From IMG/VR virus record IMGVR_UViG_3300042434_002493, positions 16,436 to 80,435 of that record: 64,000 bases of DNA. One strand, 5' to 3'. Both the position numbers and the translations under genes were made by a program. Positions 1 to 24,243 of the stretch are shown here, piece by piece. The notes beneath the pieces were generated by a model. The model did not search any database. It saw nothing but the letters and a program-made list of their open reading frames with translations, and was not told the origin of the DNA. Within the stretch, counting starts at the first letter, position 1; every line of letters starts with the position of its first letter. The stretch comes from a virus.

Positions 1-3000
1 TACTTCACGCGCCCGGACATCGCCGCGTCCATGTGGGATCTCCTCGCCCATCACGGCCTCGCGCCGGACGCAAAGGTGCTTGAGCCCGCGTGCGGTTCGG
101 GCGTGTTTATGCAGACCGCCCCCGAGGGCGTGACCATGACCGCCGTGGAGATCGACCCCGAGGTGGCCCTGGTTGCGTCGAGCCTGCACGGAGCCCGGCA
201 CACGGTCCACGCCCAGAGCTTCGAGGAGTTCGCGGTGGCCCGCGAGCGAGGGGTGGGCGACCGCTTCGACGCGGTCATCACGAACGCGCCGTTCTGCACA
301 CGCACCGGCGACGGGGCCCGCATCCACAAGCCCGAGTACACGAGCGCCGACGCCTATTTCGTGGACACGGCGCTCGACCAGGTGAAGGAGGGCGGTCTCG
401 TTGCGATGATCGTCCACCGCGGCGTCATGTCGAACGACGGCATGCAGGAGTTCCGGCGCCGAATCGGAGATCGCGCCGAGCTGGTCGATGCGTTCCGGTT
501 GCCCGTCGAGGCGTTCAAGCACGCCGACACCACCGTCGTTTCCGACGTGATCATCCTGCGGAAGCGCCCCGAGGTGGTCGCGACCGCGCTCGCCCGCGGC
601 GGCGAGGAAGTCGGGCGAGCCCTCGGGGTGAACGACGAAGACCTCATCTACGGCCGCTGGTTCGACGACAAGCCCGACCGCGTCCTGGGGACGGTCGGCA
701 AGGACTGGCGCGGTTCGGATCTCGTCGAGGGCAGCGCCGACGCATGCGCGCCGCTCATCCGCGCCCGCGGGGTTGCATCGTGGGCGCACGGCCCGGCCGG
801 CAAGACGATCACGGCCGAGGAGATGGCCGCGCACTCCGACGAGCGCGTGCGCGCCGCCCTGGACGCCGCGAAGGCCGACGTCGCGATTCCGACGCCGGTG
901 CGCGGCAGCCAGACGGTGATCGCCGGGAAGACGTACATCCTCACCCCGGGCGAGAGCGGGGCCCTGCGCTGGCGCCGGCTCGACAGCATCGACGACGCAC
1001 GCGAACTGCTGCACAGCGGAGACGCGGCCCTCAAGAGTGCCGGGGATCTTGCGCTGCGGTACGGGGATCTGCGCTCCGCGATGGCCCGAGGCGACTACCT
1101 GCGGGCCCGTGGCATCCGCCGCAAGCTCCAGAAGGACCTGAACGCCTGGGTCGAGAACTACGGCGTGCCCGCCAGGCACCCCGAGATCAACGCGCTCGCC
1201 GGCCAGGACGCGAACATCGCGCACCTGGTCGCCGCGGTGAATCCCGACAAGACGATGGCCGACATCCTGACCTCGGACCCGGTCATCCCGCCCGCCGCCA
1301 CCGGCGACCGGGCGGTCCCGGCGACGAGCGTCAGCGAGGCCGCCAGCCACCTCGCCACCCACAATCCCGGCCAGCCGATCACGGTCGCCAAGCTCCGCGA
1401 AGCGTTCCCGAGCACGGCCGAGGACGATGAGATCGTCGCCGGCCTGGTGGAGAGCGGCGAGTACGTGGACGCCCGCGGGGCCTTCGGTGTCGAGAGCGAC
1501 GCGCCTGGTGTCTTGCACGCGGACGACTACGCGAGCGGGGATCTCTTCGCTCTGCGCGACCACGAGTTCGAGCAGGCCGCGAGCGAGGACGACGCGACCC
1601 GCCAGCGCGCCGAGGCCCGCCTTGCCCTCGTGCAACGCCACATCGACGAGCGGTGGCGTCCGCTCGACCAGGTCGAGGTCTCCGTCCGCAGCGGGTGGAT
1701 TCCGCCCCACGTCATCGAGGCGTGGCTCAACAGCCCCGACGTGATCGCCGACTGGCACAAGGCCAGTCAGTTCAAGGTCACGGAGGCCGGGGGCGTCTAC
1801 ACGGTCTCCTACTTCGACGAGGCCAAGGGCAAGCGCGTCAAGCACAGCGGAGAGCCGGACCACGTCCCCGCCCGCAACATCCTGCGCTACATGAACCGCC
1901 TACCCCTGCACGGAGAGCGAGCCCGCGACGAGGCCGAGGCTGAGGACGAGAAGTTCCGCTCGTGGCTCGCCTCTTCGGACCTCCGAGGGGACGTCGAGGA
2001 GATTTACAACCGCCGCTTCACCGGGCAGGTCCCGAGGCGTTTGAACAGCACGCCGATGAAGATCGACGGGTTGCAGAAGGAGTTGTGGCCCTACCACTAC
2101 GAACAGATCCGATGGAACACAGACCGCCGGGGCGGGATCGTCGCGATGGACGTCGGACTGGGCAAGACGTTCAACACCATCGCAACCGCGCGCCAGATGC
2201 GCGTCACAGGCCAGGCCCGCAAGGTGGCCGTCACCTGCCCGAAGTCGGTGATCATCAACTGGAGCAAGGAGATCGAGGACCTGCACCCGGGCGCGAAGGT
2301 CATGATCGTGGGGGCGACGAGCAAGGAGAAACCCAAGAAGACCTGGCGCGACCCCACCGTGCCCGAGTACGTGGCCGTCACCGACAACGACGAGACCTTG
2401 ACGAAGAAGCTCGCCGACATCGCCGCCAACGACTACGACCTCGTTCTCTTCACCTACGAAGCGCAGGCCCGCATCCCCGTCCGCGACGACAACGTCACGC
2501 GCTTCGAGGGCGATGATTTCTGGTCTCGACGAGCGTCGAAGTTGAGCGACAGCGAGGCCACGGTCGCCCAGTCCGCCGAGACCCGCCAGAAGAAGCTCGC
2601 CCAGGCGCTCGCCTCCTACCAAGCCGAGCGCGCCAAGCTCGGTTTCAACGTGAAGCAGTCCATCATCCACTGGGAGGATCTGGGCATCGACACGATGTTC
2701 GTGGACGAGGCCCACAACTTCGCCAACCTCGGGAGCCCGCGCTCCCGAGGAGGGCAGGTCAAGATGATGGGGAGCAGCTCCGACAACGTGAAGCGGGCTC
2801 ACGACCTGCAATTGAAGGCCGCTCTGGTGCGCGAGCGCCGCAAGCCCGACGAGACCGACGACGCCTACCAGCGCCGCATGGACGAGAACAAGGAGCAGGG
2901 CCTCGGCGTCAACGGCAACGGCGTCTTCATGCTGACCGCGACGCCTGCGAAGAACAGCCCGATGGACGTCTACCACCTCATGCTCCAGGCCACCCCGCAG

Positions 3001-4956
3001 GTCTGGCGCGAGGTCGGCGTGCGCAACCTCGAAGAGTTCATCGACCGCTACGTGGACATCGAGGAGCGGCCGATCATCAACACCGAGCAGAAGGCCGAGA
3101 TGGCGAACTGCGCGGTCGGATTCAAGAACCTCATCGAATTGCGCGCGGTCATGGAGCGCGGACTGAGGCGCCGCACCGCCAAAGAGGTCAACCTCAAGGT
3201 GCCGCAGACCGAGCGCGAGGAGCACCTCGTGGACATGACGCCGCAGCAGCACAAGGCGTTCCGCGACATCCGCGACGAGTTCGAGCGCCGCAAGCTCGAC
3301 AAGGACGAGCGGGTCGCCAATTCCGCGACCCTTTGGCTTCTGCACCAGCTCAACGCCGCCGGCACCGATCTGTCCCTACTCTCCGATGAGCACCCAGAGC
3401 ACGCGGGCGAGTGGCGGCACAGCCCGAAGTACCACGAGGCCGTGGGCACCATCGTGAAGAACCTCAAGAGCGGGCGTGGCGGCCAGGTCGTATTCATCGA
3501 CCGCAACGCCAGCCACACGCACATGAAGAATCTCCTGGTGGAGGCAGGCATCCCCGAGAGCGAAATCGAGATCCTGAACGCCACGACCGCGGCCGACGCG
3601 GACAAGCGGTACGCGGTCAGCGAACGCTTCAACCTGGGCAAGACCCGGGTCGTCATCGGGAACACCGGGACGATGGGCGAGGGCGTCAACCTCCAGAAGA
3701 ACACGAGCGATCTGCACCACCTCGACCTACCGTGGAGCCCCGGCAAGTACCACCAGCGCGAGGGCCGCGCCGTCCGACAAGGCAACAAGTACGGCAAGGT
3801 GCGGATTCACACCTACTTCTCGAAGCGCAGCTTCGACAGCTACCGCCACGCCATCTTGAGCGGCAAGCAGGGGTGGGTCTCGAACCTGTACAGCGGAGGC
3901 GATTACGCGGAGAACACCGAGGAGGGGGAGGACTTCAGCCCCGAAGAGTTGCAGATCATGTTGGCCGACGACCCCGACGAGGCCCGCAAGGTCTTCGAGG
4001 CGAACAAGGGGGCCCGCGTGGCCGCCCTCCAGGATGCGGCCCGCGCGAAGGCCATGCGCGACTGGCAGGGAGTCATCAAGCGCCGCAGCGCGCTGGCGAA
4101 GATGGCCGACAAGACCAGTCACGCGGCCCGGCGCCTCGAAGACACCATCCGCCTCGACACCGCGCGACTGAAGCGGGTGACGGAGTTGCCCAAGCCGCTG
4201 CGCGCCGCGCTCGACTCCGACCTCCCATGCGTCGCCGTGCCCACCACCGGGGCGATCATCAAGGTCGGCGACGTCATCCTCCCGAAGAACGGCAACGTGC
4301 TCGAAGACGCGCACGTCGTAACCGACGTGGACCCAGTCAAGGGCGCGGTCTCGATTCGACCGTTCGGCCGCAAGCGCCCCGCCTACTACGGCAAGCACAC
4401 TCTCACAGCGGCCGAATTGCCGGCCTACGTCCACCACGAGGGCCCGGAGACGGAGGCGGACGCTTACAGGCCGCAGGTCCGGGAGAAGCTCGCCGCTGCG
4501 GCGAAGTTCCCGACGCTGGCCGGGCACGACCTCGCAGAGATGCGAGACTGGCCGGAGGCGATCCGGCGCGAGTTCGAGCCCGAGGCCCGACAGATCGCCG
4601 CCGCCGCCGTCTCGCACGTCAACCCATACGGCCACGTTTTCGTGCGCCATGGCGACACAGTGAAGGCTGTCCGCGGCGACAGCCCGGAGGCCAAGAACGC
4701 CGCCCCCCTTCTACCGTGGGGCGAAGACCGCGAGGCCATCCTGCGGGGCCTGGTGACTCACCTGCGCACCGAGGGCAAGAAGCAGGTGGTCACGCAGGGC
4801 AAGCGCGGCTCCATGAATTACACCGGGCGCTACGAGTACCAGCCGAGCTACGAATGGAAAAATGCTCACGCCCGCGTCGTCGGCGGGCGGGGAGACGACT
4901 ACGGGCTTGAGCAGGAGGCCATCAGGCGCATCCACCAGGAGGACCAGGCGAAATGA
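1..4956 (+). CDS. DarB-like N6-adenine DNA methyltransferase fused to an SNF2/SF2 helicase (5'-truncated by the window edge)
   Basis: Frame is open from base 1 (YFTRPDIAASMW). MTase motifs: YFT, VLEPACGSG (motif I), ITNAPF (motif IV variant). Helicase motifs: MDVGLGKT, FVDEAH, LTATPAKN, GEGVNLQ, QREGRAVRQGN. Same architecture as phage P1 DarB. Confidence 0.9.
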   Translation, partial: YFTRPDIAASMWDLLAHHGLAPDAKVLEPACGSGVFMQTAPEGVTMTAVEIDPEVALVASSLHGARHTVHAQSFEEFAVARERGVGDRFDAVITNAPFCTRTGDGARIHKPEYTSADAYFVDTALDQVKEGGLVAMIVHRGVMSNDGMQEFRRRIGDRAELVDAFRLPVEAFKHADTTVVSDVIILRKRPEVVATALARGGEEVGRALGVNDEDLIYGRWFDDKPDRVLGTVGKDWRGSDLVEGSADACAPLIRARGVASWAHGPAGKTITAEEMAAHSDERVRAALDAAKADVAIPTPVRGSQTVIAGKTYILTPGESGALRWRRLDSIDDARELLHSGDAALKSAGDLALRYGDLRSAMARGDYLRARGIRRKLQKDLNAWVENYGVPARHPEINALAGQDANIAHLVAAVNPDKTMADILTSDPVIPPAATGDRAVPATSVSEAASHLATHNPGQPITVAKLREAFPSTAEDDEIVAGLVESGEYVDARGAFGVESDAPGVLHADDYASGDLFALRDHEFEQAASEDDATRQRAEARLALVQRHIDERWRPLDQVEVSVRSGWIPPHVIEAWLNSPDVIADWHKASQFKVTEAGGVYTVSYFDEAKGKRVKHSGEPDHVPARNILRYMNRLPLHGERARDEAEAEDEKFRSWLASSDLRGDVEEIYNRRFTGQVPRRLNSTPMKIDGLQKELWPYHYEQIRWNTDRRGGIVAMDVGLGKTFNTIATARQMRVTGQARKVAVTCPKSVIINWSKEIEDLHPGAKVMIVGATSKEKPKKTWRDPTVPEYVAVTDNDETLTKKLADIAANDYDLVLFTYEAQARIPVRDDNVTRFEGDDFWSRRASKLSDSEATVAQSAETRQKKLAQALASYQAERAKLGFNVKQSIIHWEDLGIDTMFVDEAHNFANLGSPRSRGGQVKMMGSSSDNVKRAHDLQLKAALVRERRKPDETDDAYQRRMDENKEQGLGVNGNGVFMLTATPAKNSPMDVYHLMLQATPQVWREVGVRNLEEFIDRYVDIEERPIINTEQKAEMANCAVGFKNLIELRAVMERGLRRRTAKEVNLKVPQTEREEHLVDMTPQQHKAFRDIRDEFERRKLDKDERVANSATLWLLHQLNAAGTDLSLLSDEHPEHAGEWRHSPKYHEAVGTIVKNLKSGRGGQVVFIDRNASHTHMKNLLVEAGIPESEIEILNATTAADADKRYAVSERFNLGKTRVVIGNTGTMGEGVNLQKNTSDLHHLDLPWSPGKYHQREGRAVRQGNKYGKVRIHTYFSKRSFDSYRHAILSGKQGWVSNLYSGGDYAENTEEGEDFSPEELQIMLADDPDEARKVFEANKGARVAALQDAARAKAMRDWQGVIKRRSALAKMADKTSHAARRLEDTIRLDTARLKRVTELPKPLRAALDSDLPCVAVPTTGAIIKVGDVILPKNGNVLEDAHVVTDVDPVKGAVSIRPFGRKRPAYYGKHTLTAAELPAYVHHEGPETEADAYRPQVREKLAAAAKFPTLAGHDLAEMRDWPEAIRREFEPEARQIAAAAVSHVNPYGHVFVRHGDTVKAVRGDSPEAKNAAPLLPWGEDREAILRGLVTHLRTEGKKQVVTQGKRGSMNYTGRYEYQPSYEWKNAHARVVGGRGDDYGLEQEAIRRIHQEDQAK

Positions 4957-5273
4957 CCCCCACGAAGGAGTCCGCGACCATCCTGGTGCAGATGCTTCAG
5001 ACGCACCCGGCCTACTACCTGAACTTCGGGCCCTACTGGTGGATCGTGAAGCGGTGGTTGCTGCGCCTGGGGTTTACGCGCGCCAACACCCGCCACCTGG
5101 GAACGTACACGGACCCGCAGGCCCGCGCCTGGTACACCGACCGGCCGTTTCTCAGCGCCATCGAGCAGGCGTTCGCCTACCAGGCCGAGCGCGCCCAGAA
5201 CTGCCCCGGCTCGCCGTTCTGCCAGACGCCAGACGGTGAGGACTACATCCTGGAAGACCAGGACGCCGAATGA
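4953..5273 (+). CDS. Hypothetical protein (106 aa, FGPYWW motif)
   Basis: ATGA overlaps with both neighbouring genes; GC3-rich codon usage. Confidence 0.75.
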   Translation: MTPTKESATILVQMLQTHPAYYLNFGPYWWIVKRWLLRLGFTRANTRHLGTYTDPQARAWYTDRPFLSAIEQAFAYQAERAQNCPGSPFCQTPDGEDYILEDQDAE

Positions 5274-8200
5274 ACCCCGCCGCCCTGTTGCTCCAGCTCC
5301 AAGCCAACCGGGAAGCCGGCAAGGCCATCGACCGCAGCGACACCGCGACCGCATCCCTGCTTCCCGCGCTGGACGCCGCCGGTGACATCGACCACGGCGG
5401 GCGGCTCCACGCCGAGATGCGAACGGACAAGCGCGGGCGGACCCAGCATCGGCACGTCCGATGGGAGGAATTGAAGGGCGAAGACCTGGTTCACCAGGGC
5501 TACGTCAAGGCAGGCAGCCCCGCCGCGTTCGAGGCCCTGGGGGGGGACGAGTTCGCCGATCCGTCATGCGCGCGGTGCGGGGCACGGATCAAGCACGCCT
5601 ACCTGACCAACCACGGGCCCCTGGGGGGCGACTGCCTGGCGACGTTGACTGGCGACGACAGTTCGCGCGCCGCGGCGCGCCGGTTCGTGGAGAAGCTCGA
5701 CAAGGCGCAGGACAGCGCCCACCGGAGCAAGCGTACCCTGGCCGTTCTGACACTCAGCTTCGACCAGCACGCCGGCCAGATTCGTGCCGACTTCCAGCTC
5801 ACCAACGGCCGCCCGTGGTACGGCGCCGCTGGTGACGCTCGCCACGCGGTCATGTTCCACGCCGCCGCTTCCCAGTGGGCCGAGGCCCGAGGCTTGGAGG
5901 TGGACGAGCATCTCTCCGGGGACGAGAGCGCGCTCGCCGCCGCCAAGCGCATCGCCAGGGAGCGCCGGGCCGAGTTACAGGCCCGTGCCACCAGCAAGGC
6001 CGAGCAGGAAGTAGCCCGCATCCGCAGCGAGTCCCTCCGCCGCCTAGACGGCGTCCTGGCATTCCTGAAAGCGCCGCAGAACTACCGCCGGGCGCCCGTC
6101 GAAGCCGACTGGTTTTTCGGGCCCCTGAAAGCCCAGGCGGCAGACGCGATCCGAGAGCAGGTTGGCTTCCGCGTTCGCAGGTTCCGCAACAGTCGCGGCG
6201 ACGAACTGACGGAGGTGTCCGCGCGTCAACAGGGGCGCGGCCCCATCGTCGGCATGTTCCCGCCCGACGACTACGACGACCTCATCGACCGAATCCAGAG
6301 CGCAGGCTTTGAGGTGGAGAGCCAGGAAGCCGCCAAGGCCCTGCCGCTCGACCCCCCGCCGCAGGTCCGCCGGCCGCAGGAGCACCACCACCACGGCAGC
6401 GTGAAGGTGCCGGGTCTGCCGACGGTGGACGTCGAGACGCCCGAGGGCACCGTGCGCCGGGGAAAGGGCAAGGACGGGGAGCCGTGGGCCGTGCTCATGC
6501 CCGCGCACTACGGCGAGTTTCGCGGCACGCTGGGCGTGGACGGCGACGCCGTGGACGTGTTCGTGGGCCCCGAGCGCGACGCGCCGACCGCGTGGGTCAT
6601 CCGCGCGAAGGACCCGACGACAGGACGCTACGACGAGGACAAGGTCATGGTGGGGTTCGCCACCCGCACCGAGGCCATTCGCACCTTCCGCGCCTCGTAC
6701 AACGTGCGCGGCGTGCTGGGCGAGGTCACGGGCGTCCCGGTCGCCCGTCTTGGGGCGCTCCTCGCCGATGCGAGGCACCGCGGTCTCCCGCTCAACATGC
6801 ACAAGGCCGAGAGCCGCGAGCCGCCGCCGGCCGGGCCCGACTCTTCCCTGGACGACGCCTGGCGACGCCTGGAGCATGTCCGCCAGCAGATCGCCGAGCT
6901 GGCCGACACGCACGAGGGGGGGAAAGCCATCGACAAGAAGGACACCGCCACCACGAGCATGTTCGACCTCATGGGCGTGGGCGATCCGAGCCACGCCGGC
7001 CGACTTCACGAGGAGACCCGGACGGACGCGACCGGGCGCACCCAGAAGCGGTGGATCGCGTCGCAAGAGGCGGAGCCCGAAGGCACCATCCGGCATGGCG
7101 ACCTTGTTTCGCGCCCCGCCACGGTGCGAAGTGAGCACGGCGAAATGATGGGCGGTTCTGGCAACGCCTACACCCCAGACGGCGAGGCGTTGATCGCGCT
7201 CCCGCAACCGGGATTCGTGATCGGTGACGTGGAGATCGACGCAGCGCACCGTGGAAAGGGCCACGGACAGGCCCTCTATCTCCGGGCGATGGCCGAGCAC
7301 GGGAGGCTCTACTCCTCGTGGCCAGTGAGTAAGGATGCGTTTCGCGTTCACGACGCCCTCGTCCGCAAGGGTCTGGCCACGCGCCGCAACGTCGAGACCG
7401 ACGGCACCACGTTCACCGTTCTGGAGCCGACTGGGCAAGCCACGACGCCGCCCGAGGGTCTGGTGCAGATCGGCGAGCGAGCGCCCCGCGGGCGCGCGCC
7501 GACGCCCACGACCCCAGGCATGCGCGCCCAGGGCCGTCTCGACGGACTGGGCCACGAGCCGAGCCCGCCGCCGGCTCACCCCGAGCCGTCTCTGCGCGAC
7601 TACGACACGATCCTGGTGAACAGCTCCGCCGGCAAAGACAGCCAGGCGATGCTCGACTACGTCGTCGCGAAGGCGCGCGCCGAGGGTGTGCTCGACCGCG
7701 TCGTCGTCGTGCATGCCGATCTGGGCAGGGTCGAATGGGAAGGCACACGCGAGCTGGCCGAGGCGCAGGCCAAGCACTACGGACTGCGCTTCGAGGTGGT
7801 GACGAAGACCAAGGGCGACCTCATCGAGCAGATCGACCAGCGCGCCGTGGACCTTCAGCAGCGCAGTCACGACGCGGCCACCCTCGCCGCGGCCGGGTTT
7901 CGCACTTGGGGCGATCTGGCGGGGGCGAGCGCCGAGACACTGGCCGGGCTGATCGGCAAGGCCCAGGCGGACGCAGCGCAGCCGACCGAGGAGCGAGCTG
8001 CCAAGCTCAAGCAGGCCGCAGAGCGCAAGCTCAAGGGCGGCAAGGCCGCGACAGACCCGGTGGACTTCGGCAAGGAGATCGCGTGGCCGTCGAGCGCGTC
8101 GCGCTACTGCACCTCCGACCACAAGCGCGGTCCCATCCGCACGCTCATGACGCGCCTGACCAGCGAGTTCGACCGCAAGGGCGCGCCGGTGCGCATCCTG

Positions 8201-9799
8201 AACTGTATGGGCCTGCGGGGCGACGAGAGCAGCAACCGCGCCAAGATGCCGACGTTCGAGCACGACGACGCGGCGAGCAACGGCAAGCGTCATGTGGACG
8301 AGTGGTTGCCGATCCACCACTGGAATGAGGGCGACGTCTGGCGCCGCATCCGCGACGCCGGCACCCCCTACCACGGCGCCTACGACCTCGGGATGCGCCG
8401 GCTTTCGTGCGTGTTCTGCGTGTTTGCCACCCGCGACGACCTGAAGATCGCCGCCCACGCCAACCCGGCCCTGTTCCGCGAGTATGTCGCCCTGGAGCGC
8501 CGCGTGGGGCACAAGTTCCGGGCGGACCTCGCGCTGGCCGAACTGCACGACGCGATGGCCGCGGACGACGACCGCACCGAGGCATCGAAGGCCGCCGAGC
8601 AGATGCGCCTCTTCGGTGACCCGACCCACGGCGGCCACCTGCACGTCGAGGTCCGCACCGACAAGAGCGGCCGCACCGAGCGCCGCCACGTCCGCACCGG
8701 CTCGTTGCACACCGAGATGGGCCACGCGGGGGCGCCCGCGCCAGGCGAGCGCGGGCACATCACCCTCACGCCCGAGCGAGCCGAAGCCGAGCGCCGGGCC
8801 GGCAACATCATGGAGCACGTCGGGCGCATCTTCGACGGGGGCGAGGTACACCTCATCGAGGGCGCCATGCACGACGCCGGGCACACCCGAGAGTGGGCGC
8901 CGGACGAGAGCGGGGACGAAACTCCGTTGACCATTCGAGACGACGAGCTGCCCGGTCTGCTTGGGATGCCCGAGTGGAGCCCGGAGGACGCCGCCGACGC
9001 TGTTGCTCTGGTTGCCGATTCAACCGCGCACGGTGGGGTCATGCCCGGCGCCGTCGTGCGCGAGGTATTGGCGGACGCCATCGCGCCGGCCGGCAAGCTG
9101 CGACTCGTCAACGTGTCGCTCGACGAGGCCCGCGACTTTGTCGCCAAGCACCACAGCCAGATGCCCGAGATGAACCCCCGCGGGCTGATCTACGCCGTGG
9201 GGTGCATGAAGGGCGGGCGCCTGGTGGCCGTCGCGACCGCCGGCACGCCGACCGGGCGATGGGGCAACGGGCGGGTGGACCCGCGCAACATTCTGGAGCT
9301 GACCCGCATCGCGTCCGACGGCACCACGAAGGGGGCGTCGTCGAAGCTCGCCGCGCGCATGATTGACCTCCTCGACCGCTCCAAGCGGGGCGACGCCGAT
9401 GCCCCCGCGCTGTTCGTGACATACAGCCTGGGGACCGAGGACGGCACGACCTACCGCGCGCTGCGAGAGAAAGGTCTGCGACCCGTGGCGCTGGTCCACG
9501 GCAAGGCCGCCGGTGGGGGCGGGGCCCGGTCAGGCAACCGCCTGGGATACGCCGAGCCCGACAAGATCCGATGGGAGGCCGGCGCCGCGGCAGGCCCGGC
9601 CCGCTGGGATCTGCTCGAAGGCGCGAAGGCCGGACCCATCGCCAACGCCCCCGGCACTGATCCGCTACTTCCGCCCGACGAGGCTGCCAAGAGCTTCGGC
9701 GTCGTCGTCGCGTTCAAGGCCATCGACGAGGCAGATCGGGCAATGGCCCGAGGTACTGCTCCAGGTCGCCCTGCGGTTCAAGTAGCCGCGGGCGATTGA
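5270..9799 (+). CDS. Multidomain virion-cargo protein (1509 aa): Zn-finger, inorganic-pyrophosphatase-like, GNAT, PAPS-reductase-family and Mom/XF1762-like acetyltransferase domains
   Basis: CARC..H..GGDC (~5570-5640). HYGEFRGTLGVDGDAVDVFVGP..YDEDKVMVGF (~6390-6780). DVEIDAAHRGKGHGQALY (~7210-7400). NSSAGKDS, RYCTSDHK, GLRGDES, RLSCVFC (~7590-8560). SLDEARDFVAKHH, LELTRIASDG, VTYSLGTEDG (~9100-9610). Confidence 0.85.
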   Translation: MNPAALLLQLQANREAGKAIDRSDTATASLLPALDAAGDIDHGGRLHAEMRTDKRGRTQHRHVRWEELKGEDLVHQGYVKAGSPAAFEALGGDEFADPSCARCGARIKHAYLTNHGPLGGDCLATLTGDDSSRAAARRFVEKLDKAQDSAHRSKRTLAVLTLSFDQHAGQIRADFQLTNGRPWYGAAGDARHAVMFHAAASQWAEARGLEVDEHLSGDESALAAAKRIARERRAELQARATSKAEQEVARIRSESLRRLDGVLAFLKAPQNYRRAPVEADWFFGPLKAQAADAIREQVGFRVRRFRNSRGDELTEVSARQQGRGPIVGMFPPDDYDDLIDRIQSAGFEVESQEAAKALPLDPPPQVRRPQEHHHHGSVKVPGLPTVDVETPEGTVRRGKGKDGEPWAVLMPAHYGEFRGTLGVDGDAVDVFVGPERDAPTAWVIRAKDPTTGRYDEDKVMVGFATRTEAIRTFRASYNVRGVLGEVTGVPVARLGALLADARHRGLPLNMHKAESREPPPAGPDSSLDDAWRRLEHVRQQIAELADTHEGGKAIDKKDTATTSMFDLMGVGDPSHAGRLHEETRTDATGRTQKRWIASQEAEPEGTIRHGDLVSRPATVRSEHGEMMGGSGNAYTPDGEALIALPQPGFVIGDVEIDAAHRGKGHGQALYLRAMAEHGRLYSSWPVSKDAFRVHDALVRKGLATRRNVETDGTTFTVLEPTGQATTPPEGLVQIGERAPRGRAPTPTTPGMRAQGRLDGLGHEPSPPPAHPEPSLRDYDTILVNSSAGKDSQAMLDYVVAKARAEGVLDRVVVVHADLGRVEWEGTRELAEAQAKHYGLRFEVVTKTKGDLIEQIDQRAVDLQQRSHDAATLAAAGFRTWGDLAGASAETLAGLIGKAQADAAQPTEERAAKLKQAAERKLKGGKAATDPVDFGKEIAWPSSASRYCTSDHKRGPIRTLMTRLTSEFDRKGAPVRILNCMGLRGDESSNRAKMPTFEHDDAASNGKRHVDEWLPIHHWNEGDVWRRIRDAGTPYHGAYDLGMRRLSCVFCVFATRDDLKIAAHANPALFREYVALERRVGHKFRADLALAELHDAMAADDDRTEASKAAEQMRLFGDPTHGGHLHVEVRTDKSGRTERRHVRTGSLHTEMGHAGAPAPGERGHITLTPERAEAERRAGNIMEHVGRIFDGGEVHLIEGAMHDAGHTREWAPDESGDETPLTIRDDELPGLLGMPEWSPEDAADAVALVADSTAHGGVMPGAVVREVLADAIAPAGKLRLVNVSLDEARDFVAKHHSQMPEMNPRGLIYAVGCMKGGRLVAVATAGTPTGRWGNGRVDPRNILELTRIASDGTTKGASSKLAARMIDLLDRSKRGDADAPALFVTYSLGTEDGTTYRALREKGLRPVALVHGKAAGGGGARSGNRLGYAEPDKIRWEAGAAAGPARWDLLEGAKAGPIANAPGTDPLLPPDEAAKSFGVVVAFKAIDEADRAMARGTAPGRPAVQVAAGD

Positions 9800-9824
9800 G
9801 CCGCGGCGCGGCGCAGGGTACAAC
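9796..9824 (+). promoter_or_regulatory. Possible sigma70-type promoter for a leaderless transcript of the 2831-aa gene
   Basis: TTGAGC (9796-9801), 17-nt spacer, TACAAC (9819-9824), then 6 nt to ATG 9831. No Shine-Dalgarno sequence. The -10 box is imperfect. Confidence 0.35.
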
Positions 9825-9830
9825 GGCCGC

Positions 9831-12800
9831 ATGGCCCAGCCCGCGCAGCTCAACATTTTCGGCGGTCAAGATCCCATCCGCAACGGCGGCGATCCTTCGC
9901 ACGGCGGGGCCCTTCACCAGGAGCGGCGCACCGACAGCCGAGGAAGGACCGAGACGAAGTGGGTCCGTGACCCCAACGACCGACGCACCGTGGACTTGGA
10001 GAAGCTGATCGCACTCAAGGAAATGGGCCGCCGGGTGGACCGGCCGACCCTGTTCCGGTGGGCAGCCGGCCGGGTGAAGCACGACCCGGACACCTGGACG
10101 GCCTACCGCAAGTCCACAGCCGAGGAGACCCGCCAGGAAGGCGAGCAAGAACTGCGTCGCCGGTACGCCTGGCATCAGACGTTCGGCGAGCACACGCCGT
10201 TTCACCCCGCAGCGATGAGCGATCACATCACCGGCAGCTTCGAGGCGGAGGCCGCGAAGGCCGTCACGTTCTACCTCGCCGTGATCTTCGCCGAGGGTGG
10301 CAAGGCCGGCCCCATCGCCAACCGGCCGGGCCTGGTATTCGACTACATGAGCCGCCGTTGGAAGCGGGTCGAGCCCCACGAGGAGGGCGTTCACCTCGAC
10401 GAAGAGGCCGGGCAGGCTCACGTCGTCCCTTGGAAGCCGAAGCGCGACAAGAATGAGACGATGAGCCAGGAGGACTGGCAGGGCTTCATCGACGACGCGA
10501 ACGAGCCACTCCACGAGCGGGCCGCGAAAATGAACGCCACACTGGCGCACTACAAGGCGGGGCACCTGGAGTTCAAGAACCCCAGGGGCGACGGCCACGC
10601 GGTCATCATCCCGGATGCGAGCGAGCCGGGCCGCTGGCGTTACTCCGAGTACGACAAGAGTGGTTTCTCATCGCACACGACTCACGACACCCCAATGCAG
10701 GCCGCCGCCGCCGCCGGGGAGGCCGGTTTCACCGAGCCGGCGCCCGGCAGCCTGGATCGGCTTTCGCAGACCGAGGAGTGGGATCGCGGGACTCGCTCCG
10801 CCAAGATCAACCAGCTTGGCGGAGAACTGAACTGGAAGGGGCACCACGAGGCCGACCTGGCGGTGCGCAATCACTACGCCCGCCACGGCTGGAGCGCCGA
10901 AGCCTACCAGCGCATCATGCAGCCCGACGTCCTGGCCGCCGTCCGCGCCGGCCAGGTGCATCCCGAACTGCTCAAGGCCATCGCCGATCACCGCGAGGGT
11001 TTCAAGGCCGCGCCGAAGCTAGACTTCGGCGAGACGGCCCCGTCCGGCGAGCGGTGGATTACCGTCCGCCCCAACGGACCCGACGCCAAGGGTGTCCCGG
11101 TCCTGGTGCAGGTCCACCCCCACAACCCGCGCCAGGGCCACATCATCGGCGGCGCCGGGGGCAAGATGAACCTGCGCCGGCTCAACCTCAAGACCCCGGA
11201 GGAGTACCGGGCCGCCGCCGCCGCGCGACGCAAGAACCGACGCAAGAGCGAGAGCACGCAGGTTGACACAGGCCAGAGGGCCGCGCTCGAAGAGGTCAAG
11301 GGCGAGCACCAACAGCGCCGCAGGGCCGCCGCCGCCCAGGTACTCCGCCACGCCGGGCATCACGAGCTGGCCGACAAGATCGCCGCCGGCCCGCTGGCAG
11401 GCCAGGAGAGCGAGCACAAGGAGGCCGTCGCCGACGGCTACCGCAAGGTTCGCGTGCTCATGGCCAACGCCCGCCGAACGCTCGCCCAGGACACCGACGC
11501 CCGCGAGGCCGCAGGTCTGGGGGAGCTTCCGGCGACGAGCGGAGACGGGGGAATCGGGGCGAGCGACATCGCCGGCAGGCAGGTCATGCAGGGGGGCCTC
11601 GACTACAAGCGCGACCGGGCCGCCCTGAGCGACCAACAGGCCGATCTCGCCCGCGCCCAGGCCCTTCGCTCGCGCCTGGACGCCGATCTGCAACACGGCG
11701 AGCCCATCGACGCGCTCACCACAGCGCAGCGGTACGCCCGCGCCGCGAACCTTACCCACCGCGACATCGAGGCCGCGGGCCCCGTCGAGATCGCCGCGTT
11801 CGCCCGGCTGGCCAGCCGGCGCCTGAAAGCGTTCCGGCGGCTCCAGGAGGCCGTCACCGAGGCCGGCGGGGACAACACCGCGCCCACCATGCCCGACGAG
11901 GCTCGCGAGGCGATGGACGACATGGCCGCGGTCGTCAGCGGCAGCGGGCAGGATGCCATCGACGCCATGACCGATCCCGCGCGGAACGAAACCGCGCGCA
12001 AGGGACTACAGGCCGCCGTGGACCACGGCCTCATGGACCCGCAGCGCGAGCGGGACATGACGGCCCGTATCGAGCAGGCGCGCCGACAGTCCGCCGGGGC
12101 TCCCGAGCTTTCGCAGCTCAACCAGGAGCACGTCGAGTCTCTCCCGGCCCGCGCCATCGCCATCGTGGCCAACGACGCCGCGCACGCGATCCGCCGCATG
12201 CGCACCGCGGCCCCCGAGGATCTGCGCAAGCTCGCCGAGCAGGTGGGCGAGGAGGTGCCGACCATCAAGGGCGCCGCCGATGCGCTCGGCGAAGAGGCCC
12301 TGATCTCCGGCGAAGCCACCGACGCACAGCGCCGCTCGTTCTTGCGCCAGGCGCTCGCGTCCGGCGTGCTCACCGGCGACGCCACACCGCCGAAGGCTGC
12401 CGCCGATCCGTCCCTCGAAGTGAACGACGGGGCAAAGGCCCGCGCGATCTTCGAGGCCGGGTTGAAGGTCAAGGGTCTCGACAAGGAGGCCCGGCGCCGC
12501 CGCAACGCCATCATGGCCGGAGACCTGGCGGGCGCCGCCTCGCAACAGTGGGAGGCCCCCCGCGGCGGAGCCAACGACCCGACGCAGCAGCTCGCCGACC
12601 ACCCTTCGACCGAGATGGTCGCCGCGGTGCAAGGCGAGGTCCGCACCCAGCGCGCCCGCGCGTTTCTGGGGCAGGTCAATCAGACCTACCAGGACATCGG
12701 CCAGATGCTCGACGAGGACCAGGACGCGGCGCACGCCGATCTGGGCCGCCACATGAGCCGGGGCAGCTTCGACGCGGTCAACCACCACGCTCAAGAGATC

Positions 12801-15800
12801 CTGCGCAGCGCGACCATCGACCGCAACGTCGTAGACCTCCTCGGTTCGGAGGGGGCCGCACAACTCCTCGCTTGGCAGATCCGTCAGACGCACCCGGAGC
12901 AGGCCGAGGCATTGACGCAGGCGGTCGGCGACTATCACCTGCGCCTCCAGGACACCCACATCCCCGAGGCGATGGACACCTCGCGCGACGCCTACGAGGC
13001 CGCCCACGAGGTTCACCAGGGCATGCAGGAGCAGGGCGACCTGCGCGAGTGGCAGGCGCTCAACCGCCAGCGCATCGAGCACCTCGACCAGTCGCGGCAA
13101 ACGCTGGGCCGGACCTTGGGTTACCTGGAAACGTCCGCGGCTTTGCACGCCGCGATGCTTTCGCCGGCAGCGCACCCGATCCGCGTCTCCGCCGGGCCGG
13201 TCGATGCGACGCAGCTCGCAGCCCACGCGCGCGCCGCCGGACTCGGAGACGACGACTTCCACATCGAGCACGACGGCAAGAACGGGTGGTTGACGGTGCA
13301 GCCGGCAGCGTTCGGCAAACTTGTCCGCCCGGTCGATGCCGAAGAGGTCCGCCTCGACCGTGACATGGAGGCCATCCGCACGGGCCAGCAGGACGACCCG
13401 ACGTGGCGCCCGGCCGGGTTTATGCAGCGCACCGACGTCCGCCCCGAGCAGCGTTTCAAGGGTGAGGTCCCGCAGAACGCGCAGCCCTTCGACTACGGAC
13501 TCGCCGAGCACGCGAACATGCACGAGGCGATGGGCACCTACATCGCCCAGCGCGTCCACGACGGGTGGCGGCCCGTGGACATCATGCGCGATCTCCAGAA
13601 CACCGGCGAGCACATGGGCGGCATCGCCGCGGGGGTCGGCGAGGCCGACCTCCAGAGCCCGCAGGTGCAGGCGTGGCAGGAGTTGCACCCCGAGCCGCCG
13701 AAGACCGTGGCAGCCCAGGACGACGGGCAGGCGCGAATGCCCTGGGACCCCGAGCCCGAGCCCGGACCCAACCCCGCCCACGCCAGTTGGGAGCAGGACC
13801 GGCGCGAGATCGCGGCCAAGGGCAAGCTTGCCGCGTTCCACGAGGCTTTGGCCGCCCACATGCCATCGAGAGCGCAGGACAAGAATCAGAGCCTCCAGCA
13901 GGCCGAGGAGCACGCCCCGCACTTCATGGAGCTGGCCAGGCAGCACGCCGAGCGGGTGGGCACAGCGGGGACGTTGCACCACCAGCAACTCGACCCGACG
14001 TTGGCGAATGACCTCGCCTTTCGGGTGCTGGGCCGGCACCCGGCCGCGGTGGGCGCGTGGAAGCCCGTCGAACAGTTGGGCCACCACGAGCGCGCCGCTT
14101 TGCGCGAGTCGTTCTACCGCTACTTCCACAGCCGACAGGGGGAGATGCCGCAGGAGCTTCACCCCGAGGCCGTCATGGCAAAGTGGGCGAGCAAGAACCC
14201 GGAGCCGGCCCGCGACAACACCGCGCAGGGCGATCTCCTCGGTTTCGGCAGTCTCCCCGGCATGGGGGGATTCGGCGCGCCGTCGCCGGAGGACATCGAA
14301 GCCGCCGAGGCCGAAGCTGGCCACGCGCACGAGCGATGGGAACAAGCCCTCGTTGAGCACGAGCGCGCCCAGGCGGGCATCGCCGATCCCAAGGCCGCGT
14401 TTCTCTCCCAGGCGAAAGAGCACGTCGAAAGCGTCGCCCGCCACCTGGCCAAGACGACGAAGACGCACAACGACGACGCCCACCCCGAGGTCGCCGCGGC
14501 CCGGGAACGACACAGGCACGCGCAGGACGTGGCCGCGTTGCGCGCCGAGCCCGACGCGGCCACGCCCGACGCGCTCCGCGCAGCGCACGGAGCCTACCGA
14601 TCCGCCACAGGTGCGGCTCAGAGCGCCGTCGTGCAGTTGGCGCGAGCCGAAGACGCGCGGAGCCGCTCCGCCGCGCAGGCGTTCGATGCCCGTCACCACG
14701 ACGCGAGCCCGGAGTGGAAGGCGTGGCGCAAGGAGCGCGACGAAGCCGAGCGCGCCGCACACCGGGCAGCCTCGCGCTACGACGCCCCCGACTGGAACAC
14801 CTACGTCGCCAGCCACGGCGGCGCGCCGCAGGCGTACCAGGCGCTTCAGGATTTCGTGCGCTCCCGGTTCGTGCAGGAGTTCCGCACGCTCTACCAGGAC
14901 CACGCCCAGAGCCCGCTCCAGATCGGCGTGCAGGCGGTGGCCGGCGCCGCAGGCCACCGCCTCGCCTTCGACCCAGACTGGCGCGACCGTGTGCGCCGCA
15001 CCGCCAACGCAGCCGGCGCGACCGCGCGCACACGCGCAGCCGGCGGGCGGTTCAGTTCGGACCCGTACAAGGAGGCGCGCGAGCGGTTCCAGGCCCAGGC
15101 CCGCGAGATGGCCAATCGACAGACCAGCAACGTGGGCGAGGTCAATCCCGATCCGCGGCGAGCGCCCGACCTGGACGAGCGATACACCCTCGGGCAGGCC
15201 GCCGAGGGCCAGCTCGCCAACATCGTCGGGCAGCACGCGAGCATCATCGACCCGAGGCAGACGTTCGAGGCTCGCTCCGCTGACTTTTCGGGGCCGGGCG
15301 CCAAGCGGCAGCGCGCGATCAAGGCGTGGAAGCGCAGCCGCAAGATCGGGATGTTCCTCGGGACGGGCCAGGGCAAGACGACCGTCGCGTTCGGCACCTT
15401 CGCCGACCTCAAAGGCGAGGGCCGGGTCCAGCGGGGCGTGTTCGCCGTGCCCAGCATCGTGCAGGGCCAGTTCGGAGGCGAGGCGTTGTCCTTTGTGGAC
15501 CCCGCCCACATGCGCTGGCACGCGAAGCCCGGCGAGGGCAAGGCCGAGCGCATGGCCGCCTACGCCGACCCGGAGAAGCACGTTGTCGTCGTGACGCACC
15601 AGGCGCTTCGCGACGACGTCACCGAGATGGTCGCGAAGCACCTCGGGATGAGCCGCGAGCAGGTCGCCGCACACATGACGGACGGCGAGGTGCAAGCCCA
15701 GGCGCCGGAGGTCCCCCACCTCGACAAGATGCGCGACCTGGCGAGGATCACGCCCGAGCAGATGCTCCGAGACAGCGACTACGACAAGGCGATGCGCAAC

Positions 15801-19207: not shown

Positions 19208-20239
19208 ATGCGCGCGACCCCACACCAGAGCCACGTTGAATACAGCCATGCCCACGCCGACGTGGACATCGAGCTGCTCACGCGCCGCGTGGCCGTGTTC
19301 GACGGGTTCGAGGCGTTCAAGGCCGCGACCGGCGAGTTGCCGATGCACCGGCCGGACCTGAAGCGGGAGCGCCGCGATGGCGCCGACGTCTGGACGCGCA
19401 ACGGCATCATCGTGCCGCACCCGGACAAGGTCCGCTGGTTGTGGGCGCGTTTCAGCGACCCGTCGCCGGACCTCGAAGGCGAGAGTGTGTCCGCCGCGCC
19501 GTTCCGCCAGTTCGCCGACGACAGCGTCCGCAAGTGGGGCGGGTGGATCGACATGAACCACTGGTCTCGCCCTCAGCGGTTCCCCGAGCAGATGGCCAAG
19601 GCCGGCCGGTCCCCCGAAGAGTACGTCATCGGCAAGCTCACGGAGATCCGTGTGAGCGGCGACGACACAAGCTACGCCGAGGGCTACCTCTGGCCCGAGG
19701 GCGTCAACGAGCACGCCGACACCGCCGCCGGTTGGCTCCGGTACGCCCCCGACATGGTCCACTGTTCCGCCGGTGGGCCCATCGTGAAGGGGCACCCGCA
19801 GATCGTCGGTGGCCGCAAGGTCGTGCCCGTTCAGATTTTCCTGAACCACCTGGCCATCGCGCTCCAGGGTGTTCACAACGAGACCGCCGTCAAGACCACG
19901 CCCTTCGGGGAGTTCTACAAGGCACTGGCCGATGGGATCTCCGAGACCGAATGCGCGGGTGACAGCAGTTTCGCCAAGCACGTCCGCGGCATGCCCGAGG
20001 GCACCAAGGCCATGACGGCCGCCGCCGTGGCGCCCGCCGTGCCCGAGGATCTGGAGGGCGCCAAGACCACGAAGCCGGCAGGCCCGCGAGACGTGACCGA
20101 CGTGACCGACTGCGACCACTGGATCGCCGGCACCCGGAAGTTCCATTCCACCGCCGCCGCGCACGAACACCTGACGCGATGTTGCGGCTGGCCAGCGACG
20201 CGCGCGCGCGATTACCTCGCCGCCGCCACCCGATCCTGA
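19208..20239 (+). CDS. Prohead (capsid maturation) protease, HK97/Herelleviridae-like fold
   Basis: DLEGESV, WIDMNH (putative catalytic His), YVIG, YAEGYLW, CSAGG (putative catalytic Ser). Located two genes upstream of the capsid gene. Confidence 0.75.
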   Translation: MRATPHQSHVEYSHAHADVDIELLTRRVAVFDGFEAFKAATGELPMHRPDLKRERRDGADVWTRNGIIVPHPDKVRWLWARFSDPSPDLEGESVSAAPFRQFADDSVRKWGGWIDMNHWSRPQRFPEQMAKAGRSPEEYVIGKLTEIRVSGDDTSYAEGYLWPEGVNEHADTAAGWLRYAPDMVHCSAGGPIVKGHPQIVGGRKVVPVQIFLNHLAIALQGVHNETAVKTTPFGEFYKALADGISETECAGDSSFAKHVRGMPEGTKAMTAAAVAPAVPEDLEGAKTTKPAGPRDVTDVTDCDHWIAGTRKFHSTAAAHEHLTRCCGWPATRARDYLAAATRS

Positions 20240-20253
20240 AGGAGACGACCCCT

Positions 20254-21063
20254 ATGTCCAACACCGTCGAGTCCATCCAGCGCAACCTCGCCGTACTGCG
20301 TGACGCGCTGCCCGAGGGGGCCAAGGCGATGCCGCCTGGCATGCCTCCGATGGGCGCCCCCCCCGGCGGCGCCCCGCCTGGCGGCGCTCCCGGGCCGAGC
20401 CCCATGCCCGCGCTCCCCGGCTCCCCCCCGCCCGGCATGGGGATCTCGCCCCCGCCCCCCACCCCCGAAGGGGACGAGGAGGAGAATCCCGAAGGGGACG
20501 AGGAAGAGAATCCCGAGGACGAGGAGGGCACCAAGGCTTTCTACGAGGGGTGCAAGAGCGCCGAGTGCGGTCGATGCTTGCCGTGCATCAACGCCGAGGC
20601 CGAGAACGAGGGCGCCAAGTCCTACCAGGACGGCCAGGCCGCCGCCCAGGTCGGCAGCACCGTGCTCGCGCGCCTCATCGAGGGCGCCGTTCACGCGGCC
20701 GTGGGGTCGCGCCTGCGTCGCATCGAGCGGCAGCTCGAAGCCGTCGCGCAGGGCGTGGACGGCAACCTGACGCTGGGGCTCAAGAGCGCCGAGAGCCTGG
20801 GCGCTCTGCGCCGGGCCCCCGGCGTGCTCCCCCGCGGCCCCGGCGTCGCGGTCGCCAACGCCCGTGGCGGGAATCCCGCGCCGGGCGTTCACCTGCCGCC
20901 TCCGGTCGAGGAGGGTGGTAAGTGCCCCTACAACGAGCAGCAGCTTCTCATCGCCGTGCAGAAGGGCGTCCTGACGGGCGCCGAGGCGCAGCTCTGGATG
21001 AACCGTGACCAGCCCCCTGCCCGTCTGCGCAACCCCGTCGAAGCCGTGAAGTCCGTCCTCTGA
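20254..21063 (+). CDS. Putative capsid scaffolding protein (269 aa)
   Basis: AAGGAG RBS. Lies between protease and capsid genes. Has Pro-rich and acidic tracts, a coiled coil and several E-[GA]-x-K-[AS] sites. Confidence 0.65.
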   Translation: MSNTVESIQRNLAVLRDALPEGAKAMPPGMPPMGAPPGGAPPGGAPGPSPMPALPGSPPPGMGISPPPPTPEGDEEENPEGDEEENPEDEEGTKAFYEGCKSAECGRCLPCINAEAENEGAKSYQDGQAAAQVGSTVLARLIEGAVHAAVGSRLRRIERQLEAVAQGVDGNLTLGLKSAESLGALRRAPGVLPRGPGVAVANARGGNPAPGVHLPPPVEEGGKCPYNEQQLLIAVQKGVLTGAEAQLWMNRDQPPARLRNPVEAVKSVL

Positions 21064-23939: not shown

Positions 23940-24224
23940 ATGCGCCGTCGCAACCCGCCACCGCCGGCAGCCGCCTCGACCGCCGACGACTGGCAGCGCA
24001 TCTCTCTCACCGTCGAGTCGGACGATCAGCGAGCGTTCACCCTGGATGCCGCCGCGGCCCTGGACGAGGATGGCGACCCGAAGGCACGCATCGAATACAG
24101 CGGGGGCACCTACAACGCTCCCGACGATTTCACGACCGCGGGCACCACGCTGACGTGGGCCGGAACGATTCCCCTGGTTGTGGGGGAGTCGTTGACCCTC
24201 TGGATTGTGCCGCAGCGCACATAA
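23940..24224 (+). CDS. Small beta-rich hypothetical virion protein
   Basis: GGGGAAG RBS; DDFTTAGTTLTW-type beta strands. Confidence 0.65.
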   Translation: MRRRNPPPPAAASTADDWQRISLTVESDDQRAFTLDAAAALDEDGDPKARIEYSGGTYNAPDDFTTAGTTLTWAGTIPLVVGESLTLWIVPQRT

Positions 24225-24243
24225 CAAGCACAGGAGAAGGAAC

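Follow-up and report, generated by a model that had tools for sequence, protein, structure and literature searches.

We analysed a window of 64,000 nucleotides, bases 16436-80435 of an 80,435-bp IMG/VR provirus record (IMGVR_UViG_3300042434_002493; about 70% guanine-cytosine (GC) content), the same DNA being contained in many lake-water metagenomes. It belongs to a myovirus lineage with phrog_752 capsids, and between its portal and capsid genes lie giant multidomain cargo proteins in which a short header recurs ahead of unrelated domains. The core of this header is a 27-residue motif, G-D-P-S-H-G-G-x-L-H-x-E-x-R-T-D-x-x-G-R-T-x-x-R-W-V, hereafter the hairpin, of which the window contains four copies. 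An original prediction, made from the sequence alone, had presented these copies as a candidate capsid-loading tag. The copies, and the elements found with them (predicted head-protease sites of the form E-x-x-K-A, pentapeptides that we call LF motifs, and a second type of header), are the following:

5312..5326, + strand: EAGKA, predicted head-protease site before copy 1, followed by IDRSDTATASLL
5381..5461, + strand: hairpin copy 1 (GDIDHGG...RHVR), residues 38-64 of the 1509-aa polyprotein
6326..6340, + strand: EAAKA before the InPase module, no hairpin after it
6914..6928, + strand: EGGKA before copy 2, followed by IDKKDTATTSMF
6980..7060, + strand: hairpin copy 2, residues 571-597 of the 1509-aa polyprotein
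8579..8593, + strand: EASKA before copy 3
8600..8614, + strand: QMRLF, LF motif between EASKA and copy 3
8615..8695, + strand: hairpin copy 3, residues 1116-1142 of the 1509-aa polyprotein (AlphaFold2 strands LHVEVRT / TERRHVR)
9617..9631, + strand: EGAKA, then a truncated second-type header (GPIANAPG; second-type region 9617-9650)
9846..9860, + strand: QLNIF, LF motif at the N-terminus of the 2831-aa protein
9888..9968, + strand: hairpin copy 4, residues 20-46 of the 2831-aa protein
10293..10367, + strand: EGGKA and second-type header, GPIANRPGLVFDYMSRRWKR

Copies of the hairpin in the record

All four copies were recovered where they had been predicted. Thirteen of the 27 core positions are identical across them, and a single 34-residue copy used as a query finds six other places in the 80-kb record (E = 6e-10 to 3e-5), so that the recurrence of the motif is not due to chance. 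At the nucleotide level the copies are 57-75% identical, and different codons encode about half of the residues that do not vary between them. The copies are therefore old paralogues in which selection acts on the peptide, in agreement with the original prediction of a conserved peptide behind diverged codons. Its inventory was right for the window but incomplete for the record, where three clear copies and a weak one lie further upstream (genome positions 9614, 12841, 14384 and 15341). The three clear ones stand near the N-termini of a 1093-residue protein rich in Ala, His and Lys, a 391-residue zeta-toxin kinase and a 2385-residue DarB-like protein, while the weak one is found at residue 370 of this DarB-like protein. 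The record thus holds seven clear copies and one weak copy, all within five consecutive giant genes located between portal and capsid.

As had been noticed, three of the window copies follow an E-x-x-K-A site (EAGKA at 5312, EGGKA at 6914, EASKA at 8579) and the fourth begins 19 residues from a start codon. The domains that come after them are indeed unrelated: a Zn-ribbon-like domain after copy 1, GNAT and PAPS-reductase-like domains after copy 2, a Mom-like GNAT after copy 3 and a giant SNF2 helicase protein after copy 4. The expectation that a tag heads each mature product is not supported, as the InPase module that follows EAAKA (6326), itself a predicted product, has no hairpin.

Conservation and predicted structure of the hairpin

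Across 52 instances, G6, L8 and G18 are invariant; D1, G5, D15, an aromatic residue at position 24 and an aliphatic one at position 25 are nearly so, and the mean net charge is +3.2. Members from low-GC genomes have the form D-P-S-H-G-G-K-L-V-K-K-Q-I-x-D-K-x-G-K-K-x-T-x-W-V. AlphaFold2, run on header 3 and its cargo as a single chain with six homologues in the alignment, places the strands LHVEVRT and TERRHVR around a D-K-S-G turn, with a predicted local distance difference test score (pLDDT) of 56-62. Next comes a segment of lower confidence (pLDDT below 50), which leads to a confident Mom-like domain (pLDDT 80-89). Given this succession of hairpin, low-confidence linker and confident domain, the hairpin appears to be a separate unit tethered outside the cargo fold, although confidence in the modelled hairpin itself is modest. 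Its charge, this model and the many unrelated cargo domains to which it is attached fit the portable basic beta-hairpin that had been proposed.

The motif had also been thought not to belong to a described family, and the databases agree. Pfam returned no family for seven header segments at E values up to 10, the LPD families held in Pfam included; in the PDB the motif profile found no meaningful sequence match, the ESM Atlas gave no usable match, and term searches of Iyer et al., 2017 (PMC5512222) turned up no description of such a motif. We regard the motif as an undescribed variant of head-cargo signals on polyvalent proteins, which are a known kind of system. We also weighed a GDPH-like autocleavage between Asp and Pro, and rejected it on account of a different spacing and of the replacement of the proline in about a quarter of the instances.

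A composite header

The full header, as found in relatives, consists of a hydrophobic leader, E-x-x-K-A, the LF motif, a Pro/Ala linker, the hairpin and a second linker that leads to the cargo. The leader follows the start codon as a short strand of hydrophobic character (such as MRNVFVLCF, MIVRIFG or MFLIRI), the LF motif takes the forms QLGLF, QLSLF, QLDLF, QLNIF or T-L-S-M-F-D, and the Pro/Ala linker before the hairpin spans 0-60 residues. A hydrophobic-x-K-[AGS] site lies at most 30 residues upstream in 42 of 54 motif instances, compared with 13 for random positions (maximum 22), and a hydrophobic-x-hydrophobic-F lies at most 60 residues upstream in 26 of the 54 versus 5 expected. Twenty-six instances begin within 70 residues of the N-terminus.

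The pentapeptides QLALF, QLDLF, QLNIF and QMRLF precede hairpins in this record, four observed for 0.21 expected, and are set in stretches rich in Pro, Ala and Gly; the first two lie upstream of the window (L008, 14300-14314 and 14366-14380). Relatives carry QLSLF and up to three tandem QLGLF (P0020). The consensus for binding to the beta sliding clamp is QL[SD]LF, which these pentapeptides fit as far as sequence goes. Similar LF motifs are located near the N-termini of DarB-like proteins from phages of the Myxococcota type (G000, G001), Bordetella and Thermus, with QLALF at the equivalent place in the cultured Bordetella phage vB_BbrM_PHB04 and a weaker EQPALF in the Thermus phage protein. 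A cargo module of about 350 residues (Y-F-x-S-G-S-x-H-x-G-E-I-x-G-F-A-D ... D-S-G-A-F), without a Pfam match, follows the LF motif in P0004, P0006, P0007, P0012 and P0023.

At other junctions the place of the hairpin is taken by the second header type, K-A-G-P-I-A-N-x-P-G-L-x-x-D-x-x-S-H-R-W-K-R, which is also present in P0007, P0008, P0020 and P0024. Hybrids between the two types occur in a sister phage, G001 (GGIANRPGLVLTTITDRAGRK), and in PHB04 gp034.

A candidate head-protease site

The pattern E[AG][AGSW]KA appears nine times in the five cargo proteins, versus 0.24 expected from shuffles. In the whole record, E[AG]xK[AS] is found 21 times in the 10,496 residues of head-module proteins, from portal to capsid, versus none in the 12,155 residues of the remaining predicted proteins. 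Beyond the cargo it is present in a scaffold-like protein (four times), in a protease candidate (three), at the C-terminus of the portal and in the protein after the portal. The capsid protein bears a variant one residue longer, EQGLKA, near its N-terminus, and GLKAM, RVKAM and LLKAM are kept at the capsid N-terminus in three distant phages. Because the pattern is confined to head-module proteins, E-x-x-K|A is probably the site at which a head protease matures them. Between site and hairpin lie 0 to about 50 residues. Since the hairpin is downstream of the predicted cut, it would remain on the mature protein.

The gene at 19208-20239 is our candidate for the prohead protease. It has conserved NH and CS motifs, and found no sequence match in Pfam, PHROG or the PDB. 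Its AlphaFold2 model (mean pLDDT 40.6) was too poor and was not used for a fold search, and an hhalign comparison with a low-GC protease-scaffold fusion recovered only a stretch of 20 residues after K-A. This stretch, K-A-[MI]-x-x-A-A-x-A-P-A-x-P-E (window 20000-20060, residues 264-284; L035 2404-4176), is the sole part of the candidate kept between the 70%-GC and 36%-GC phages, and it could be an element for self-cleavage or capsid docking.

Distribution among relatives

A profile search of 1.84 billion representative proteins at E <= 0.001 returned 48 matches. Twelve of them are repeat proteins with RTSSxGNxxTRWV; as their match covers just half of the profile, they were treated as unrelated and left aside. 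P0014, P0015, P0019, P0028, P0038, P0042, P0045-P0047, P0049 and P0052 are proteins with arrays of repeats of about 37 residues, W-G-x-W-x-x-T-G...R-T-S-x-x-G-N-x-x-T-R-W-V, whose match falls on the second half of the hairpin profile, a likeness that may be due to common origin or to convergence. Many of them seem, by eye, to have an N-terminal region resembling a trypsin-like peptidase followed by PKD-like repeats. In the viral scan, a strict exact pattern (D-P-x-H-G-G-x-L...G...W-V) catches only one of the seven copies in the record; its matches L025, L041 and L042 are due to chance.

The 36 motif-bearing clusters all combine the motif with enzymes of the kind found in phage-type polyvalent proteins (Topo IB, ART, NUDIX, LPD1, methyltransferases, SNF2, InPase, 2H, Acb1 and Mom), and the motif lies within the head module in all five phage genomes with readable gene context. 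The confinement to head modules and the variable cargo that the original prediction expected from a profile search are borne out as far as these genomes and clusters show. Wherever the capsid gene of motif-bearing phages was checked, it belongs to a single family, phrog_752, while the phages themselves span 36-73% GC. Sister phage G001 has eight copies, all located between the capsid and portal genes. In a prophage from a Myxococcota metagenome-assembled genome, the motif precedes by 12 kb a capsid gene with 48% identity. The low-GC IMG/VR contigs G007 and G008 have one copy each, and in G007 the gene for the motif-bearing protein of 1222 residues is followed immediately by those for a protease-scaffold fusion and a phrog_752 capsid protein. 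Phage PHB04 carries divergent versions in the gene after the portal and at the start of its DarB-like gene; among GenBank phages it was the only one matched by tblastn with header queries of 34 and 44 residues, sensitivity being low at such lengths. In tblastn with queries of 34 and 166 residues, again of low sensitivity at such lengths, the header found no match among 72,556 plasmids, 1,073 of which are matched by the DarB-like cargo.

Cargo proteins and gene order

The order of genes in the record is small and large terminase, portal, a 419-residue protein, five cargo genes with a Ulx-like gene of 106 codons, the 343-residue protease candidate, a Pro/Glu-rich scaffold-like protein, the phrog_752 major capsid protein, tail fibres, sheath and an M23 peptidase protein. 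The genes concerned here are, within the window:

1..4956, + strand: 3' part of the gene for the 2385-aa DarB-like N6-methylase/SNF2 helicase cargo; its start and two divergent headers lie upstream of the window
4953..5273, + strand: Ulx-like anti-restriction protein without header (phrog_1629, E 4e-11)
5270..9799, + strand: 1509-aa polyvalent polyprotein with header 1, an uncharacterised domain, InPase, header 2, GNAT, PAPS-reductase-like domain, header 3 and Mom-like GNAT
9831..18326, + strand: 2831-aa polyvalent protein with header 4, a second-type header and SNF2 helicase
19208..20239, + strand: candidate prohead protease with EAFKA, EFYKA and EGTKA (assigned from its position and the motif order DLEGE..NH..CS)
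20179..21063, + strand: scaffold-like Pro/Glu-rich protein with EGAKA, EGTKA, EGAKS and EAVKS
21102..22589, + strand: major capsid protein with GLKAM near its N-terminus (phrog_752, E 2.5e-24)

Further on, at 24205-26034, a tail-fibre-like protein has a decapeptide-repeat region (PF25296, below the Pfam cut-off; phrog_28766, E 9e-47).

The Pfam domains found in the cargo are InPase, PAPS_reduct, N6_Mtase, SNF2 and Zeta_toxin. In the 1509-residue protein, the InPase (PF18823, E 3e-31) occupies 6383-6751, the PAPS-reductase-like module 7592-8569 and the Mom-like GNAT 8771-9616. This last module, which follows copy 3, folds as a GNAT in the AlphaFold2 model, with phage Mu Mom (8bv8) as its best structural match. 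Together, the three modules could be a DNA-modification kit. The DarB-like protein is 27.6% identical to P1 DarB (E = 1e-30), only the methylase-helicase core being demonstrably homologous. The window, P1, D6, Bordetella phage PHB04 and Thermus phage Lalka8 have in common a DarB-like gene followed by a Ulx-like gene, which suggests that this uncultured lake-water phage encodes a Dar-like anti-restriction set at 1-5273. The zeta-toxin-type kinase upstream of the window (PF06414, E 1e-31; L008 12796-13971) has a header at its start and EGGKA at its end, and is apparently a toxin-like enzyme carried as head cargo.

As a class, the cargo correspond to the phage-type polyvalent proteins described by Iyer et al., 2017 (PMC5512222). 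At least two unrelated effector domains share a polypeptide in the 1509-residue protein and in the DarB-like protein (N6_Mtase and SNF2), and the genes lie among portal, terminase and head genes. InPase and 2H, which that paper restricts to phage-type polyvalent proteins, are represented by InPase (PF18823) in the window and by both domains among the motif-bearing clusters. Domains that the same paper assigns exclusively to conjugative elements are absent from all 36 clusters.

Which element loads the capsid

The internal proteins IPI-III and Alt of T4 are targeted by a propeptide of about ten residues that precedes the cut and is lost on maturation (Mullaney and Black, 1996; review in PMC9026906). 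Unlike such a signal, which is N-terminal to the site and discarded, the hairpin is found 0-50 residues downstream of the predicted site. In P1, the first 30 residues of DarB package a reporter and the first nine do not, and truncations implicate residues 6-10 (MGVFR) as critical (PMC9024508). P1 DarB starts with M-N-K-L-S-M-G-V-F-R-C-S-S-V-S-E-I-L-K-Y. The DarB homologue of this record has P-M-F-F-I-R-I-E-G-L-K-A, relatives have M-F-L-I-R-I-E-G-L-K-A or M-I-I-L-L-T-K-A, and the leader of the Thermus phage DarB-like protein is L-V-R-L-Y-Q-E-L-L-A-K-A. The hairpin profile does not match P1 DarB even at E 100.

Several cargo genes of the same modules have a leader and K-A and lack the hairpin: the InPase in the window, an InPase gene and a helicase gene in the Myxococcota prophage, and PHB04 gp028 and gp025. 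Moreover, internal copies in polyproteins are conserved as well as terminal ones, when one loading signal would suffice for each polyprotein. The position of the hairpin on the retained side of the predicted cut, the leader's likeness, by eye, to the P1 DarB signal, the cargo without hairpin and the conserved internal copies all argue that the hairpin is needed after cleavage and not as a signal for loading, and here we depart from the original prediction, in which the hairpin itself loaded the capsid.

Interpretation and alternatives

Our preferred reading, which we hold tentatively, is that mature head cargo keeps the hairpin as a label that retains the released modules in the head and lets them exit with the DNA, loading being left to the leader. 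Entry of the precursor into the prohead would be due to the leader, as it is for P1 DarB; cutting at E-x-x-K|A, the head protease would then separate the modules and leave a hairpin at the new N-terminus of most of them. In this position the hairpin may keep the module inside the filled head, attached to DNA or to the inner wall of the capsid, and then carry it out together with the DNA at infection. A number of points weigh against this. Packaging, cleavage and ejection are inferred for every member. The resemblance between the P1 signal and a leader with E-x-L-K (MGVFR..EILKY and MFFIR..EGLKA) is one seen by eye, and the protease candidate owes its assignment to gene position, the NH and CS motifs and the short match after K-A. 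The 2831-residue protein has an LF motif and a hairpin, with neither leader nor K-A before its header, so that its loading must depend on another element, perhaps the LF motif or the hairpin. Several low-GC proteins begin almost directly with the motif. In G007 and G008 the copy is found near the C-terminus of the polyvalent protein, whereas in other low-GC clusters it is near the N-terminus.

A broader reading, possible though on the whole doubtful, takes the header as a general and transferable cargo code of one capsid lineage, with the hairpin, alone or together with the LF motif, docking on a conserved site inside the phrog_752 head or on the packaged DNA. If so, any protein that bears the header would enter the head, be released by cutting and be injected, and the free exchange of enzymes in these phages would have an explanation. 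That the hairpin is itself the loading signal, docking on the scaffold, the capsid interior or the portal in the manner of an encapsulin peptide, seems unlikely to us, despite a motif that accompanies a single capsid family (phrog_752) over such a range of GC contents, the leaderless 2831-residue protein and low-GC proteins that start almost at the motif, such as P0036 and P0053. Against it stand the motif's place downstream of the predicted cut, the sufficient 30 residues of P1 DarB, which stop before any hairpin-like stretch, the cargo with leader and K-A only, and the several conserved copies within one polyprotein, which loading does not need.

It is comparably improbable that the header acts in the infected cell, where the LF motif would bind the host beta sliding clamp and the basic hairpin would bind DNA or the replisome, bringing the cargo to DNA. 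The excess of LF motifs upstream of the hairpin, their fit to the clamp-binding consensus here and in relatives (QLGLF, QLSLF), their presence in Bordetella and Thermus DarB-like proteins, the charge of the hairpin and the many tagged cargoes that act on DNA (methyltransferases, Topo IB, Mom, helicases) speak for such a role; however, low-GC members have the hairpin without the LF motif, a zeta kinase, ARTs and NUDIX are tagged as well, and the DarB-like proteins of plasmids lack such a header at the sensitivity of tblastn. We find it more improbable still that the hairpin has no addressing role and instead serves the head protease as a docking site, or presents E-x-x-K-A as a junction element. 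In 42 of 54 instances a site is present at most 30 residues upstream, but the sites of the capsid, scaffold, protease, portal and InPase do without a hairpin, the spacing between site and hairpin is variable, and several copies near a start codon have no site upstream. Finally, the repeats might be recombination linkers at the DNA level for cassette shuffling, with a functionless peptide. Modules have clearly been shuffled between relatives, but the low nucleotide identity between copies, the synonymous differences at about half of the conserved residues and the persistence of the same peptide in 36%-GC genomes make this a very remote prospect.

Ready-made enzymes that are injected with the genome let phages beat host defences before phage genes are expressed, and T4 and, in part, P1 are the only phages in which the recruitment of unrelated enzymes into capsids is understood in detail. 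The header offers a sequence-defined handle on cargo recruitment in another lineage, which has Bordetella phage PHB04 as a cultured relative, and separates three candidate functional elements: leader, LF motif and hairpin. Should any of them prove sufficient, it could serve for the delivery of proteins by phages. Knowledge of the header would also improve the annotation of the large polyvalent proteins that are common in metagenomes.

Comparison with known systems

As a short portable peptide that would address unrelated enzymes to the interior of an HK97-fold shell, the header resembles the cargo-loading peptides of encapsulins, which are usually C-terminal and bind the shell directly; a sequence relation to them was not apparent, no test for one having been made. 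With the capsid targeting sequence of T4 it has in common a short N-terminal peptide on unrelated cargo, coupled to a head-protease site (here a predicted one), the cargo being injected with the DNA in T4 and, by our reading, here; the T4 sequence is moreover transferable to foreign proteins (PMC9026906). The T4 signal, however, lies upstream of an L/I-x-E cut, whereas the hairpin is 27 residues long, lies downstream of the predicted E-x-x-K|A and recurs inside polyproteins. The ejection proteins of the giant phages SPN3US and phiKZ are, as proposed for the cargo here, a bolus of protein carried in the head and processed by a prohead protease at a short shared motif (PMC10052503). There, propeptides are removed after a P1 glutamate (motif P3-P2-P1) and no retained header motif has been described.

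The gene arrangement is matched in P1, where DarB is likewise followed by a Ulx-like gene and is packaged by means of its 30 N-terminal residues (PMC9024508; PMC12810830). No shared tag was found among the Dar proteins of P1, whereas here five cargo genes share one. The proteins themselves resemble those of Iyer et al., 2017 (PMC5512222): giant multi-enzyme products of head-module genes with InPase, the methyltransferase-helicase dyad, LPD1, ART, 2H and zeta kinase, for which packaging and processing were predicted. In that paper, processing is proposed to be carried out by zincin-like metallopeptidase domains, while in the phage studied here the modules would be released at a head-protease site that they share with the capsid protein.

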